NCBI RefSeq assembly: GCF_054482525.1
Contig: NZ_CM137006.1
Reading direction: 5' to 3' (one strand)
DNA: 64,000 nucleotides
Part shown: piece after piece, positions 9,401-51,877 of the stretch
Numbering within the stretch: position 1 is the stretch's first letter
Layout of the letters: every line of letters starts with the position of its first letter
The notes under the pieces: generated by a model
The model's database searches: none
Seen by the model: only the letters and a program-made list of their open reading frames with translations
What the model was told of the DNA's origin: nothing
Made by a program: the position numbers and the translations under genes

Positions 9401-9526
9401 GGGCAGGGCGCGATAACCGATAATCCCGGCGAGTAAGATCGCCACCATCAGCAGCGTGGTGGCGACAGGACGCATAATAAACAGGCGCGACGGGCCGCCT
9501 GTGCTGCTCGGGGGTAACACCTGCAT
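6404..9526 (-). CDS. mdtB: RND multidrug efflux pump subunit MdtB
   Basis: 1040-aa RND-family ORF, paralogous to the adjacent mdtC product. Confidence 0.93.
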
Positions 9527-10773
9527 CAGGAGCGTGCTCCTTTTTTCGCGTATTCGCGGCTGGTGGCTTTCTCTTCCGAAGTGGTGGCGCTCTGGGCTTC
9601 CACCACTTCCACTTTCGCCCCTTCGGTCAGGCGATCAATGCCATCCGTCACTACGCGGTCGCCCGCAGAAATACCTGCGCGGATCACCACTTTCTGACTG
9701 TCCTGAATGCCCGGCGTCACCAGATGTTTGCTGACCTTGTTTTCGCTATTCAGCACCCAGACAAAATGGCCTTCGTTGCCCATTTGCAGAGCGGCGGTGG
9801 GGATCACCACGGCGTTTTGTTCGGTGTCGACTAACATACGCGCGTTAACAAACTGATTGGGAAACAGCGCATCATCCTGATTATTAAAGCGTGCTTTCAC
9901 TTTAATCGTACCGGTAGTGGCATCGATTTGGTTATCGAGACTTAACAGCGTGCCTTCACTTAATTTCTTCGAGTTGGTGCGATCCCAGGCTTCAACAACC
10001 AGCGGTTTTCCGGCTTTTTGCGCCTGTACTACGGTAGCGATATCGCTTTCCGGCAGGGTAAAGAGCAAATCGATAGGATGCGTCTGGGTGATCACCACAA
10101 TCCCGGTGGTATCACCACTGGAGATTTGGTTACCAACATCAACCTGCTTGAGGCCAACGCGACCATCGACTGGTGCGGTAATACGGCTCCAGTCGAGCTG
10201 CAGCTGCGCGCTGGCGACGCTTGCTTCATCAGCCTTAATGGTGCCTTCGGTTTCACTGACCAGCGCTTGTTGGGCATCCAGCTCCTGGCGGGAGACAAGA
10301 TTGGTTTTTGCCAGTTGTTGATAACGCGCCAGGTCACGGCGGGCGTTGGCAAGCGTGGCTTTATCTTTTGCCAGTTGGCCCTGGGCTTGTGCTAATGCAA
10401 CTTTGAACTGGCTTGGGTCAATTTCTGCCAGTAAATCGCCTGCTTTGACCTGCTGGCCTTCCTGGAAATGTAACGCCATCAGTTGACCGTCCACGCGGCT
10501 GCGCACCGTAACGGTATTAGCGGCGGTAATGGTGCCAAGCCCGGTGAGATAACGTGGCACAGCTTGTTCTACGGCAGTCGCCGCCTGAACCGGGGCTAAT
10601 GGGCCGGCACGCATACCACGGCGACCACCCGCTGGCGATTGCTGCGCTTGTTTCGTCGCCCCTGGGGCTGCACTCCGGGAGTCATTGCGGCCTTGCCAGA
10701 ACCAGAATGCGGCGATGGCGGCGATAACCACCACGATTACGATTACCCAACGGGATTTATAACTGCCTTTCAT
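9526..10773 (-). CDS. mdtA: Membrane fusion protein MdtA (periplasmic adaptor)
   Basis: The ORF track gives 9526..10920 (464 aa). I place the start at the internal ATG (reverse complement of 10771-10773, [16 protein letters not shown]...), which gives 415 aa and a signal-anchor N-terminus. The upstream extension has no support. Confidence 0.88.
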
Positions 10774-10826
10774 CGTTAAGAGTTTCTCTTCCTGAAACGT
10801 TTCGCGGAATGATACTAGTGTAGCCA

Positions 10827-10844
10827 GCCAATAAGGGAGAAAAA
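10827..10844 (-). promoter_or_regulatory. BaeR-box-like motif in the mdtA promoter region
   Basis: Reverse complement of 10827-10844 is TTTTTCTCCCTTATTGGC, close to the published BaeR consensus TTTTTCTCCATDATTGGC. It lies about 55-70 bp upstream of the mdtA start. Confidence 0.6.
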
Positions 10845-10999
10845 TGGAGGAATTATGAAACACTATCGGGAATCGTCTGAATGGCGGGCACATTTGCGAG
10901 CACGCATCCAGTAATAACACATGAAACTATTTTATCTACGCGTTAGCGATAGACTACGTGCATGGCGAAAGGAGGTAAGCCGATGATTTCAGCGGGACG

Positions 11000-11145
11000 C
11001 TGAAACGGGAAAGCCCCTCCCGAGGAAGGGGCCATAAATAAGGAAAGGGTCATGATGAAGCTACTCATCATCGTGGTGCTCTTAGTCATTAGCTACCCAG
11101 CATACTAAGACTACCAGGGCGGGGGAAACCCCGCTCTACCCTCAC
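11000..11145 (-). ncRNA. sibB: Sib-family antisense sRNA (antitoxin) overlapping ibsB; boundaries approximate
   Basis: A minus-strand promoter-like element lies downstream of the ibs stop (TTGACA as reverse complement of 11174-11179; weak -10 near 11151-11156). A minus-strand hairpin followed by a U-rich tract lies near 11000-11040. The extent is inferred, not mapped. Confidence 0.4.
11052..11108 (+). CDS. ibsB: Ibs-family type I toxin, 18-aa hydrophobic peptide (MMKLLIIVVLLVISYPAY)
   Basis: Hand-translated ORF preceded by the SD-like AGGAAAGGG. The peptide matches the Ibs toxin family. The A/B assignment is from memory of the K-12 peptides and the copy nearest mdtA. Confidence 0.75.
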   Translation: MMKLLIIVVLLVISYPAY

Positions 11146-11329
11146 TCCTGAAAGTATGCCTTCACGATAAGATTGTCAATCTGCAGGCTTTGCAGTCTGC
11201 GATCCTGCCAGCAAATATTCTTTGCGAGACGTTACGCAATAATCACACTGGAAACTATTTTATCCGCAAGTCAGCGATAGACTGCATACAGGGCGAAAGG
11301 AGGTAAGCCGACGATTTCAGCGGGACGCT

Positions 11330-11480
11330 GAAACGGGAAACCCTCTCCCGGAGAAGAGGGCTTTTAATAAGGAAAGGGTTATGATGAAGCACGTCATCAT
11401 ACTGGTGATACTCTTAGTGATTAGCTTCCAGGCTTACTAAGAACACCAGGGGGAGGGGGAAACCTCTCCCTAACCCTCAC
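11330..11480 (-). ncRNA. sibA: Sib-family antisense sRNA (antitoxin) overlapping ibsA; boundaries approximate
   Basis: Same architecture as the first unit: minus-strand -35-like TTGACA (reverse complement of 11509-11514) and the hairpin CCCTCT...AGAGGG at ~11341-11360. Confidence 0.4.
11381..11440 (+). CDS. ibsA: Ibs-family type I toxin, 19-aa hydrophobic peptide (MMKHVIILVILLVISFQAY)
   Basis: Hand-translated ORF in the second repeat unit, with an SD-like GGAAAGGG upstream. Confidence 0.75.
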   Translation: MMKHVIILVILLVISFQAY

Positions 11481-11660
11481 TCCTGAAATTATGTCACTCC
11501 GCCCTTAGTGTCAATCGACGGCTCTCCGTTCTTGCGAGGCGAATAGCAAAATTTTCTGCGCCGCCGGGCCTAATTCTGAAAGTTTCTTCGTTTGCTCTTA
11601 TTTCATTGTTGCAGTCGGTATGATACCGGACCTCGATAATTCTCTAAGAAAGGATTTCTT

Positions 11661-12320
11661 ATGAGCGAACAAATCACGTTTGCCACCAGCGATTTTGCCA
11701 GTAACCCGGAACCACGTTGCCCCTGCATTTTGCTGCTGGATGTTTCTGGCTCGATGAGCGGCAGACCTATTAATGAACTTAATGCCGGATTGGTTACCTT
11801 TCGCGATGAGCTGCTTGCCGACCCGCTGGCCTTAAAAAGAGTGGAACTCGGTATTGTGACGTTCGGCCCGGTGCATGTGGAACAACCATTTACCAGCGCC
11901 GCTAATTTTTTCCCGCCCATCCTGTTTGCCCAGGGCGATACACCAATGGGCGCCGCCATTACCAAAGCCCTGGATATGGTTGAGGAGCGCAAACGTGAGT
12001 ATCGCGCCAATGGTATTTCCTATTATCGTCCGTGGATTTTCCTGATCACTGATGGCGCACCAACCGATGAGTGGCAGGCTGCCGCCAACAAAGTGTTTCA
12101 GGGGGAAGAAGATAAGAAGTTTGCCTTCTTTTCCATCGGTGTTCAGGGGGCGGATATGAAGACTTTGGCACAAATCAGCGTTCGTCAGCCTTTGCCACTG
12201 CAGGGATTACAATTCCGTGAACTGTTTAGCTGGTTATCCAGTTCGCTGCGTTCGGTTTCCCGCTCCACGCCGGGAACTGAAGTTGTGCTGGAAGCGCCAA
12301 AAGGCTGGACGTCAGTGTGA
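11661..12320 (+). CDS. yegL: von Willebrand factor A (VWA) domain protein, TerY-like
   Basis: 219-aa ORF with a MIDAS-type motif ([11 protein letters not shown]) and downstream ...TPMGAAI... / ...LITDGAPTD..., typical of VWA domains. Its stop overlaps the start of the next gene. Confidence 0.85.
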
Positions 12321-13078
12321 GCTGGCGTCTGGTCTATGCATCAACCGTTGGAACGTCGCACATCAGCGCGGACTTGCCTTGCCAGGATGCCTGCCAGATG
12401 CAGGTTGCCTGGTTAAATGACCAGCAGCCATTATTGTCGGTATTTGTCGCTGATGGCGCAGGCAGTGTCTCGCAGGGTGGCGAAGGCGCGATGCTCGCCG
12501 TCAATGAAGCGATGGCTTATATGTCGCAAAAAGTGCAGGGCGGGGAATTGGGGCTTAATGATGTCCTCGCCACGGATATTGTGCTGACCATTCGTCAGCG
12601 ACTTTTTGCCGAGGCAGAGGCCAAAGAATTAGCGGTTCGCGATTTTGCCTGCACATTTCTGGGACTGATTTCATCGCCTGACGGCACCTTGATTATGCAG
12701 ATTGGCGATGGCGGCGTGGTGGTAGATTTGGGTCACGGTCTGCAATTGCCTCTCACGCCGATGGTGGGTGAATATGCCAATATGACGCACTTCATTACCG
12801 ACGAAGATGCCGTTTCCAGACTGGAAACTTACACCAGTACTGAGCGTGCGCATAAAGTTGCAGCATTTACGGATGGTATTCAGAGGCTGGCGTTAAATAT
12901 GTTGAATAATTCTCCGCATGTGCCTTTTTTTACCCCGTTTTTCAATGGACTGGCGTCAGCAACGCAGGAACAACTCGATTTATTACCTGAATTGTTAAAG
13001 CAGTTTTTGTCCGGCCCGGCGGTAAACGAGCGTACCGATGATGATAAAACGTTGGCACTGGCGCTGTGGTTACCATGA
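12317..13078 (+). CDS. yegK: PP2C-family serine/threonine protein phosphatase
   Basis: 253-aa ORF with a GTG start overlapping the yegL stop (GTGA). PP2C metal-binding motifs [15 protein letters not shown] and ...FTDGIQ... are present. Confidence 0.85.
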
Positions 13079-15015
13079 AACCCACTTTATATACTGCTAC
13101 TGGTGAGTGCGTTACGCCAGGCTGTGAACTGGGCAAAGGTGGCGAAGGCGCGGTTTATGATATCGAGGAGTTTGTCGATAGCGTCGCCAAGATTTATCAC
13201 ACGCCGCCACCCGCCTTAAAACAGGACAAACTTGCCTTTATGGCTGCGACAGCTGATGCGCAGTTGCTGAATTATGTCGCCTGGCCGCAGGCAACGCTTC
13301 ACGGTGGACGAGGCGGAAAAGTTATCGGTTTTATGATGCCAAAAGTTTCTGGTAAAGAACCGATTCATATGATCTATAGCCCGGCACATCGTCGCCAGAG
13401 TTACCCTCATTGTGCGTGGGATTTTCTACTCTATGTTGCGCGCAATATTGCGTCATCTTTTGCTACGGTTCACGAGCACGGGCATGTCGTGGGTGACGTA
13501 AACCAGAACAGCTTTATGGTAGGCCGTGACAGCAAAGTGGTATTGATTGATAGCGACTCCTTTCAGATTAACGCCAATGGAACGCTGCATTTATGCGAAG
13601 TCGGCGTGTCGCATTTTACGCCGCCAGAGCTGCAAACATTGCCATCATTTGTCGGCTTTGAACGCACCGCGAATCACGATAATTTTGGCCTTGCGTTGCT
13701 GATTTTTCACGTCTTGTTTGGTGGTCGGCATCCTTATTCCGGTGTACCGCTTATCTCTGATGCGGGTAATGCGCTGGAGACGGATATTGCCCATTTCCGT
13801 TATGCCTACGCGTCAGATAATCAGCGACGTGGTTTAAAACCGCCGCCACGATCGATACCGCTGTCGATGTTACCGGGCGATGTTGAAGCCATGTTTCAGC
13901 AGGCATTCACGGAAAGTGGCGTGGCAACCGGGCGTCCGACGGCAAAAGCGTGGGTATCAGCACTGGATTCTCTACGCCAACAGTTAAAGAAATGTACCGT
14001 TTCGGCAATGCATGTTTATCCTGCTCATTTGACCGACTGCCCGTGGTGTACGCTGGATAATCAAGGCGTTATCTATTTTATTGATCTCGGCGAAGAGGTC
14101 ATTACCACCAGTGGTGATTTTGTGCTGGCGAAAGTCTGGGCGATGGTGATGGCGTCAGTAGCACCGCCAGCATTGCAATTGCCATTACCCGATCATTTCC
14201 AACCGACTGGCCGGCCGCTTCCTTTAGGCCTGTTACGGCGCGAATACATCATTCTGATTGAGATCGCACTGTCAGCTTTATCGCTGTTGCTTTGCGGTCT
14301 TCAGGCAGAACCGCGTTATATTATTTTGGTTCCTGTGCTGGCGGCTATCTGGATTATTGGCAGTCTGACAAGCAAAGCTTATAAAGCAGAAATCCAGCAA
14401 CGCCGTGAGGCATTTAATCGCGCGAAAATGGACTATGACCATTTAGTCAGCCAGATCCAGCAGGTGGGCGGGCTGGAAGGTTTTATCGCCAAACGGACGA
14501 TGCTCGAAAAAATGAAGGACGAAATGCTCGGGTTACCGGAAGAAGAAAAACGTGCTCTGGCAGCACTTCACGACACCGCAAGGGAACGGCAGAAGCAGAA
14601 GTTTCTGGAGGGATTTTTTATTGATGTTGCCTCTATTCCCGGCGTTGGCCCTGCGCGTAAAGCGGCGTTACGGTCCTTTGGTATTGAAACAGCAGCGGAT
14701 GTTACCCGTCGTGGGGTTAAGCAAGTGAAAGGGTTTGGTGATCATCTGACCCAGGCGGTTATCGACTGGAAAGCGAGTTGCGAACGCCGTTTTGTGTTCA
14801 GGCCGAACGAAGCGGTAACGCCTGCAGACAGACAAGCGGTAATGGCAAAAATGACCGCCAAACGACATCGGCTGGAATCGGCGTTGACTGTCGGCGCGAC
14901 AGAGTTGCAGCGATTCCGCCTTCATGCTCCAGCACGGACCATGCCGTTGATGGAACCGTTACGTCAGGCGGCAGAAAAACTGGCTCAGGCGCAGGCTGAT
15001 TTAAGCCGTTGCTGA
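13075..15015 (+). CDS. yegI: Hanks-type Ser/Thr protein kinase-like protein with a predicted membrane segment and C-terminal helix-hairpin-helix-like motifs
   Basis: The ATG at 13075 overlaps the yegK stop (ATGA); the ORF track uses an in-frame GTG at 13066. Kinase-like motifs: glycine loop LGKGGEGAVY, VAK lysine, catalytic loop HVVGDVNQNSF, LIDSDSF. Hydrophobic stretch ...IILIEIALSALSLLLCGL...ILVPVLAAIWIIGSL..., then HhH-like GVGPARKAALRSFG and VKGFGDHL. Confidence 0.85.
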   Translation: MKPTLYTATGECVTPGCELGKGGEGAVYDIEEFVDSVAKIYHTPPPALKQDKLAFMAATADAQLLNYVAWPQATLHGGRGGKVIGFMMPKVSGKEPIHMIYSPAHRRQSYPHCAWDFLLYVARNIASSFATVHEHGHVVGDVNQNSFMVGRDSKVVLIDSDSFQINANGTLHLCEVGVSHFTPPELQTLPSFVGFERTANHDNFGLALLIFHVLFGGRHPYSGVPLISDAGNALETDIAHFRYAYASDNQRRGLKPPPRSIPLSMLPGDVEAMFQQAFTESGVATGRPTAKAWVSALDSLRQQLKKCTVSAMHVYPAHLTDCPWCTLDNQGVIYFIDLGEEVITTSGDFVLAKVWAMVMASVAPPALQLPLPDHFQPTGRPLPLGLLRREYIILIEIALSALSLLLCGLQAEPRYIILVPVLAAIWIIGSLTSKAYKAEIQQRREAFNRAKMDYDHLVSQIQQVGGLEGFIAKRTMLEKMKDEMLGLPEEEKRALAALHDTARERQKQKFLEGFFIDVASIPGVGPARKAALRSFGIETAADVTRRGVKQVKGFGDHLTQAVIDWKASCERRFVFRPNEAVTPADRQAVMAKMTAKRHRLESALTVGATELQRFRLHAPARTMPLMEPLRQAAEKLAQAQADLSRC

Positions 15016-26550: not shown

Positions 26551-26589
26551 CAGTGTATTGGTAGCTAAAAAGCCAGGGGCGGTAGCGTG
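26551..26589 (+). promoter_or_regulatory. JUMPstart element with ops site (GGCGGTAGCGTG) in the wza leader; RfaH-dependent antitermination signal
   Basis: CAGTGTATTGGTAGCTAAAAAGCCAGGGGCGGTAGCGTG contains the two GGTAGC half-sites and the ops core at 26578-26589, about 180 bp upstream of the wza start. Confidence 0.85.
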
Positions 26590-40921: not shown

Positions 40922-41022
40922 CAGTTGAATAATCAACCGGATTAATTCTCCGGTAAATAACGACAAAAACAAAATTGGCCGTTTCGGTCAGGGCCAACTA
41001 TTGCCTGAAAAAGGGTAACGAC

Positions 41023-51838: not shown

Positions 51839-51877
51839 CAGTACGCTGGTAGCTGTTGAGCCAGGGGCGGTAGCGTG
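51839..51877 (+). promoter_or_regulatory. JUMPstart element with ops site (GGCGGTAGCGTG) in the O-antigen cluster leader
   Basis: CAGTACGCTGGTAGCTGTTGAGCCAGGGGCGGTAGCGTG has the same architecture as the wza-leader element; ops core at 51866-51877, about 80 bp upstream of wzx. Confidence 0.85.

Follow-up and report, generated by a model that had tools for sequence, protein, structure and literature searches.

Two tandem Ibs/Sib type I toxin–antitoxin modules between mdtA and yegL in an Escherichia coli chromosome

Introduction

In Escherichia coli K-12, five Sib RNAs of ~140 nt are each antisense to a hydrophobic Ibs toxin of 18-19 aa, and, according to the original study as cited in later work, overexpression of Ibs is lethal and damages the envelope, and constitutive Sib RNA represses the toxin (Fozo 2008, via PMC2943612). 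The Sib RNA is abundant and constitutive, and both strands are transcribed; for the Ibs proteins of K-12, toxicity and its relief by the cognate Sib RNA have been reported, with IbsC and IbsD treated in detail, and the ibsC mRNA of ~159 nt extends past the Sib 3' end with an 18-nt overhang (PMC2943612). Reviews describe a translation block together with RNase III-dependent decay of the mRNA (PMC4147584). In Salmonella, IbsA is toxic, reduces both ATP and membrane potential, and binds the a and b subunits of Fo, the key residues being a basic residue at position 3 and Leu11 (bioRxiv 10.1101/2025.05.26.656083, 2025 preprint). The number of ibs copies varies among strains, with, for example, seven Ibs genes in O157:H7 Sakai (PMC2887945).

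Two independent recognition domains, TRD1 and TRD2, have been mapped in SibC (Han 2010, PMC2943612). TRD1 (+46..+68) lies in the P5 loop and targets the ORF, TRD2 (+99..+115) is the single-stranded J1/7 segment and targets the translation initiation region; either domain alone is sufficient for repression, and swapped domains retarget SibC to ibsD (PMC2943612). Repression by Sib RNAs is limited to the cognate toxin, with the exception of ibsA, which non-cognate Sib RNAs apparently repress as well (PMC2943612).

Here, we describe an ibs/sib locus in a stretch of 64,000 nucleotides of contig NZ_CM137006.1 (assembly GCF_054482525.1), referred to below as the window. The mdtA–yegL intergenic region of the window almost certainly consists of two tandem, intact Ibs/Sib type I toxin–antitoxin modules of an E. 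coli chromosome. Such a locus is not new: it has been named, annotated and characterised by experiment (2008-2010), and it is present in nearly all E. coli.

Materials and Methods

The whole window was scanned with Rfam at the gathering threshold, the gathering score of SIB_RNA being 56. Ends of the Sib RNAs were transferred by alignment from the curated MG1655 ncRNA genes, and the curated 5' ends of K-12 served to position the Sib promoters. Coordinates of all features are given in Table 1.

Table 1. Features of the ibs/sib locus, in window coordinates.
Feature	Position	Strand	Basis
Repeat unit 1 (ibsB-type/sibB-type module), mdtA-proximal	10893-11180		direct-repeat families D1-D4 and pairwise alignment
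Repeat unit 2 (ibsA/sibA module), yegL-proximal	11221-11515		direct repeats and pairwise alignment
Conserved hairpin TTTCAGCGGGACGCTGAAA, predicted 5' end of the ibsB-type mRNA	10987-11005	+	unit 2 counterpart at 11315-11333
Ibs-family toxin ORF, 18 aa, MMKLLIIVVLLVISYPAY	11052-11108, including stop	+	WP_001386901.1; translation and exact identity to the PCN033 annotation
ibsA toxin ORF, 19 aa, MMKHVIILVILLVISFQAY	11381-11440, including stop	+	WP_010723109.1; identical to K-12 IbsA
SibB-type antitoxin RNA, 136 nt	11143->11008	-	132/136 identical to curated MG1655 sibB; Rfam 141.7 bits
SibA antitoxin RNA, 144 nt	11478->11335	-	143/144 identical to curated MG1655 sibA; Rfam 149.5 bits
sibB-type promoter: -35 TTGACA 11179-11174, 17-bp spacer, -10 TACTTT 11156-11151, +1 11143	11151-11179	-	geometry relative to the curated K-12 5' end; promoter positions in the Rfam model
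sibA promoter: -35 TTGACA 11514-11509, 17-bp spacer, -10 TAATTT 11491-11486, +1 11478	11486-11514	-	Rfam model and geometry
SibB-type terminator: GC-rich stem-loop, then TTTCCCGTTTC	11002-11033	-	the CCCCT...AGGGG hairpin of the sequence-only reading
SibA terminator: GC-rich stem-loop, then TTTCCCGTTTC	11330-11361	-	the CCCTCT...AGAGGG hairpin of the sequence-only reading
TRD1-equivalent of the SibB-type RNA (SibC +46..+68)	11080-11102	-	alignment to SibC numbering
TRD1-equivalent of SibA	11412-11434	-	alignment to SibC numbering
TRD2-equivalent of the SibB-type RNA (anti-SD and start-codon region)	11033-11052	-	alignment to SibC numbering
TRD2-equivalent of SibA	11362-11381	-	alignment to SibC numbering; 14-nt core ACCCTTTCCTTATT identical in SibB

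Results

Identity and surroundings of the locus

By megablast against 5426 complete E. coli genomes, region 10800-11660 of the window is 100% identical to E. coli PCN033 and 97.1% identical to K-12, and 5311 of these genomes contain 80% or more of the region. The gene order in the window orientation is mdtA(-), ibsB-type/sibB-type, ibsA/sibA, yegL(+), with mdtA and yegL flanking the ibs/sib pair as they do in K-12, PCN033, O104:H4 and N169. Both ORFs are labelled in the RefSeq annotation of PCN033 and K-12, as 'type I toxin-antitoxin system toxin IbsA' (WP_010723109.1) and 'Ibs family toxin', and the curated MG1655 record has at the same mdtA–yegL position two ncRNA genes, sibA, which is 144 nt long and antisense to ibsA, and sibB, which is 136 nt long and antisense to ibsB. 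Comparison with the Rfam Sib model, suggested in an earlier reading of the DNA that was made from the sequence only, yielded full-length matches on the strand opposite to the ORFs for both units: SIB_RNA (RF00113) is matched completely, from model position 1 to 147 of 147, at 11514-11366 (149.5 bits, E = 3e-31) and at 11179-11037 (141.7 bits, E = 3e-29) on the minus strand. The identification of the units as ibs/sib type I toxin–antitoxin systems, proposed in that sequence-only reading, is thus supported by Rfam, RefSeq and the curated MG1655 annotation.

A 464-aa ORF at 9526-10920 (-) is a mere upstream extension of mdtA, whose annotated start is at 10773, hence no coding sequence overlaps unit 1. 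Just upstream of this start, abutting the left end of unit 1, a promoter-like TTCAGA-18-CATAAT is seen at 10852-10881 (-), and it probably belongs to the mdtABCD promoter region. On the other side of the locus, pphC (12317-13078) is directly followed by an ORF of 649 aa, which the PCN033 annotation gives as protein kinase YegI (12317-15015); in K-12, yegJ lies in the opposite orientation just past pphC, a strain difference in the yegL–pphC–yegI cluster (vWA, PP2C phosphatase, kinase). The Rfam scan also reported two JUMPstart elements and an algC RNA motif (26551-26589, 51839-51877, 40969-41018), in agreement with the gene clusters for colanic acid and O antigen that would be expected downstream in this part of the chromosome.

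Repeat units

The two units form a direct repeat, their starts being 328-335 bp apart, with ungapped segments 71-81% identical and a mean column identity of 87% in a consensus-based alignment of the two sequences; the spacer between them is ~40 bp of unrelated sequence. The tandem duplication claimed earlier is therefore real, and, judging by the Rfam E-values of 3e-31 and 3e-29, far beyond chance. The unit length had been put at ~240 bp and is in fact ~290 bp (10893-11180 and 11221-11515); likewise, the interval 10921-11480 assigned to the pair omits the sibA promoter and the leftmost 28 bp of unit 1.

Each unit has on its left edge an octamer, TTTGCG[AT]G (10893-10900 and 11221-11228), that is invariant across all aligned ibs/sib units, including K-12 ibsC, ibsD and ibsE, its surroundings being otherwise unrelated between the A/B and the C/D/E types. 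It is situated 139-159 nt upstream of the ibs start codon, and MAFFT may have anchored the alignment on it. In the search for ibs promoters, no -10-like hexamer was seen at a workable distance from the octamer.

Toxin genes

The 18-aa and 19-aa peptides quoted in the sequence-only reading are present exactly as given, and the Shine–Dalgarno-like motif that it placed before each of them is AAGGAAAGGG (11040-11049 and 11369-11378). Both ORFs are intact, with an SD, tandem ATG codons, K3 and L11, and both lie antisense and wholly within the Sib genes (11052-11108 within 11008-11143, and 11381-11440 within 11335-11478). The IbsA peptide is identical in all four strains examined, and the 18-aa peptide (Y15, WP_001386901.1) differs from K-12 IbsB (F15, WP_001386899.1) by F15Y; the MG1655 record calls IbsB just a 'putative toxic peptide'. 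The toxicity established for the K-12 and Salmonella relatives would be expected for the window peptides as well, the Y15 variant included.

The NCBIfam profile HMM scan of the peptides, padded to 20 aa, gave no match to an Ibs model and only a meaningless 9.5-bit match to entericidin A, such profiles being uninformative for peptides of this length, so membership in the Ibs family is based on exact identity to RefSeq proteins and not on a profile score. To place toxins as small as these in a family, one has to turn to exact or BLAST-type matches and to the model of the antisense RNA.

Given the 18-nt overhang reported for ibsC, the ibs mRNAs would have their 5' ends near 10990 and 11317, at the conserved hairpin CAGCG-GGA-CGCTG, whose CAGC/GCTG core shows no variation among the five K-12 paralogs; the mRNAs would then be ~155-160 nt long, and in their predicted folds the SD region is mostly unpaired. 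A search for sigma-70 promoters of the ibsA and ibsB mRNAs upstream of these predicted starts found only poor hexamers (TAAGCC, 10976-10981), none of them convincing. A leader peptide upstream in unit 1, namely a 6-codon ORF (MISAGR, then stop) with a perfect AGGAGG (10970-10975) and an ATG at 10983, was rejected as not conserved: the ATG is ACG in unit 2 (10970-11003 versus 11298-11331), the two states are swapped between the K-12 copies, and O104 copy 1 has GCA. This ORF also lies upstream of the predicted 5' end of the ibs mRNA.

Sib antitoxin RNAs

The SibB-type RNA spans the entire ibs ORF, the SD and a part of the 5' UTR. The promoter-like elements that had been noticed on the opposite strand were found for both Sib genes in the form TTGACA-17-TAATTT/TACTTT, that is, with a perfect -35 box, a weak -10 and +1 eight nucleotides downstream, all of this at the level of sequence evidence. 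A generic scan for sigma-70 promoters and terminators gave no excess of sites over shuffled sequences. The Sib promoters escaped it, since TAATTT and TACTTT, which serve them as -10 hexamers, match in just three of six positions.

The flanking hairpins, said to differ between the copies, both exist, GCCCCT...AGGGGC at ~11013-11032 and CCCTCT...AGAGGG at 11341-11360, and turn out to be the Sib terminators, since a T-rich tail follows on the minus strand in both units and on the plus strand in unit 2 only. The stems of the two terminators differ by compensatory changes (columns 125/138, CG->UA). The scan had a sole terminator-like match, at 11341-11360 on the plus strand, for which the SibA terminator of the minus strand is the better reading.

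The minimum free energies of SibA and of the SibB-type RNA are -58.5 and -58.9 kcal/mol, with z = -4.91 and -3.45, respectively, relative to shuffled controls. The folds have the P1/P5/P6/terminator architecture, with P1 as the closing stem, one 5' hairpin, one long hairpin in the centre, the single-stranded J1/7 anti-SD stretch and the terminator P7; one of the Sib hairpins is built from AUGAUGA/UCAUCAU, opposite the tandem start codons. In the consensus structure of nine Sib sequences (two from the window, five from K-12 and two from O104:H4), which was derived from the same alignment that it was scored on, 95.5% of cells are paired, and seven pairs are changed on both sides as against 0-1 in slid controls. 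By analogy with K-12, both strands are likely transcribed in the window strain.

Recognition domains

In SibC numbering, SibA and SibB of the window differ in five of the 23 TRD1 columns and in four of the 20 TRD2 columns. The longest perfect non-cognate complementarity between the SibA and SibB modules is the 14-nt ACCCTTTCCTTATT, the anti-SD core of TRD2. Modelled TRD1 duplexes have energies of about -41 kcal/mol for cognate and -22 to -27 kcal/mol for non-cognate pairs, and modelled TRD2 duplexes, -26.5 to -30.9 kcal/mol and -21 to -23 kcal/mol, respectively. As the gap is larger for TRD1 than for TRD2, discrimination between the window copies would, on these modelled energies, be achieved mainly via TRD1. 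The shared TRD2 core fits the published repression of ibsA by non-cognate Sib RNAs. The earlier claim that each antitoxin has to discriminate its cognate mRNA is correct in general; ibsA, here the 19-aa copy, is on record as an exception (PMC2943612).

The mdtA-proximal copy

The SibB-type RNA of the window has four differences from K-12 SibB, at 11090, 11095, 11099 and 11102, all inside the TRD1-equivalent; three of them are synonymous and one yields F15Y. Similarly, in O104:H4 C227-11, where three copies occupy the locus (Y15, F15 and IbsA), all five Sib differences between copies 1 and 2 are within TRD1. Between mdtA and yegL, N169 has one ibs/sib unit (ibsA alone), K-12, PCN033 and the window have two, and O104:H4 C227-11 has three.

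The inter-unit spacer of K-12 is 100% identical to the copy2–copy3 spacer of O104, and that of the window is a mosaic of the O104 copy1–copy2 and copy2–copy3 spacers. This comparison suggests that the window copy is the counterpart of copy 1 in three-copy strains, and K-12 ibsB, of copy 2; two kinds of two-copy locus would then seem to retain different B-type copies, or else the three-copy form would seem to have arisen by unequal exchange between them. Hence, the mdtA-proximal copy is not a strict counterpart of K-12 ibsB, a nuance that may add to the literature. The TRD1 haplotype of the window type is found in 3181 of the 5426 genomes (exactly in 673), and that of the K-12 type, in 2997, which implies that both occur together in at least 752 genomes.

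Discussion

Taken together, the sequence, synteny, predicted RNA structure and identity to annotated genes describe the locus itself, whereas transcription, toxicity, repression, the recognition domains and specificity come from work on K-12 or Salmonella, whose behaviour would, by analogy, hold for the window strain too. On this basis, the plus strand of each unit would give a short mRNA for a hydrophobic membrane peptide of 18 or 19 residues, and a minus-strand promoter with a perfect -35 box would give a Sib RNA of 136 or 144 nt that ends at a GC-rich terminator hairpin and is complementary to the whole ORF, the Shine–Dalgarno sequence and a part of the 5' UTR. The first contacts would be made by the apical-loop region inside the ORF (TRD1) and by the single-stranded anti-SD segment (TRD2); spreading of the pairing would then block ribosome binding and lead to decay of the mRNA, probably by RNase III, so that no toxin is made. 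Ibs, if produced, would depolarise the membrane, lower ATP and arrest growth. No observation spoke against this reading.

A tandem repeat might also be kept after one or both copies have decayed and lost a functional toxin or antitoxin. Expression of ibsA in K-12 lacking ibsA/sibA left survival unaffected (PMC2943612), IbsB is merely 'putative' in MG1655, and some strains hold a single copy, all of which would fit such relics. However, the ibsA result has been interpreted in print as other Sib RNAs cross-repressing the toxin, and not as lost toxicity (PMC2943612); moreover, neither ORF has lost its SD, tandem ATG, K3 or L11, both Sib genes keep the perfect -35 box, the full-length Rfam structure and the terminator, IbsA is unchanged in four strains out of four, and at least 80% of the region persists in 5311 of 5426 genomes. 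Decay is thus highly improbable, and both copies are better regarded as intact modules.

If both modules are intact, the mdtA-proximal one could still form a separate specificity class, in effect a sixth Ibs/Sib type, with TRD1 diverged under selection against cross-talk. The differences do cluster: all four that set the window RNA apart from K-12 SibB, and all five between O104:H4 copies 1 and 2, fall in the 23-nt TRD1-equivalent, with a naive chance estimate of (23/136)^4, about 8e-4, for the former, although the two comparisons are not independent. Three of the four changes being synonymous and one F15Y, the coexistence of both haplotypes in at least 752 genomes, the spacers, by which copy 1 goes with the window copy and copy 2 with K-12 ibsB, and the weakening of the modelled TRD1 duplex between the B types, from about -42 kcal/mol to -27 kcal/mol, point in the same direction. 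On the other hand, the two B-type RNAs have an 82-nt perfect run in common, and their TRD2 is identical over the segment compared; since either domain is enough (PMC2943612), the two B types probably cross-repress each other. The clustering in TRD1 could also result from a short gene-conversion tract, GCTAAT being present in SibA as well, or from drift at the few free sites of a doubly constrained sequence. Taking all this into account, we regard a sixth type as unlikely, if worth considering. That the copy-1 type is a specificity variant distinct from K-12 ibsB/sibB, shaped by selection on RNA–RNA recognition and reducing cross-talk in three-copy strains, seems to us quite unlikely.

As a discovery, a pair of intact ibs/sib modules is of low interest, and the sole point of modest interest is the functional meaning, if any, of the TRD1-restricted divergence. 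Together with the polymorphism of one, two or three copies, this divergence provides natural material for testing how orthogonality is gained or lost by cis-antisense pairs, which extends published ideas and opens no new question. The analysis also shows that a model reader is able to spot a type I toxin–antitoxin module from raw sequence.

Among the named systems, K-12 ibsA/sibA (b4667/b4436) is the closest to the yegL-proximal module, with the same mdtA–yegL locus and orientation, an identical peptide and a Sib RNA matching at 143 of 144 positions. The one different base is in the 3' arm of the terminator stem (C in K-12, G in the window), and in the upstream region, at 11311, K-12 has ATG and the window ACG. 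K-12 ibsB/sibB (b4668/b4437) adjoins mdtA like the window copy and agrees with it in the 18-aa length of the peptide, in 132 of 136 Sib RNA positions and in TRD2; the two differ by the four TRD1-equivalent substitutions, one of them causing F15Y, and have different RefSeq accessions (WP_001386899.1 in K-12, WP_001386901.1 in the window). The K-12 modules ibsC/sibC, ibsD/sibD and ibsE/sibE share the family, the architecture and the consensus structure with the window pair, but are found at other loci (fau–serA, yqiK–hldE), and about a quarter of the alignment columns differ in their Sib RNAs (e.g., 40/147 for window SibA versus SibE); upstream of the CAGC...GCTG hairpin, these modules are unrelated to the A/B types save for TTTGCG[AT]G. 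More distantly, ldr/rdl and zorO-orzO/zorP-orzP resemble ibs/sib in that an RNA antitoxin acts against a small hydrophobic toxin and the genes are duplicated in tandem in one intergenic region (PMC2887945), but their sequences are unrelated and their antitoxins pair with the 5' UTR or with no more than a part of the mRNA; Sib, by contrast, spans the whole ORF and the translation initiation region.
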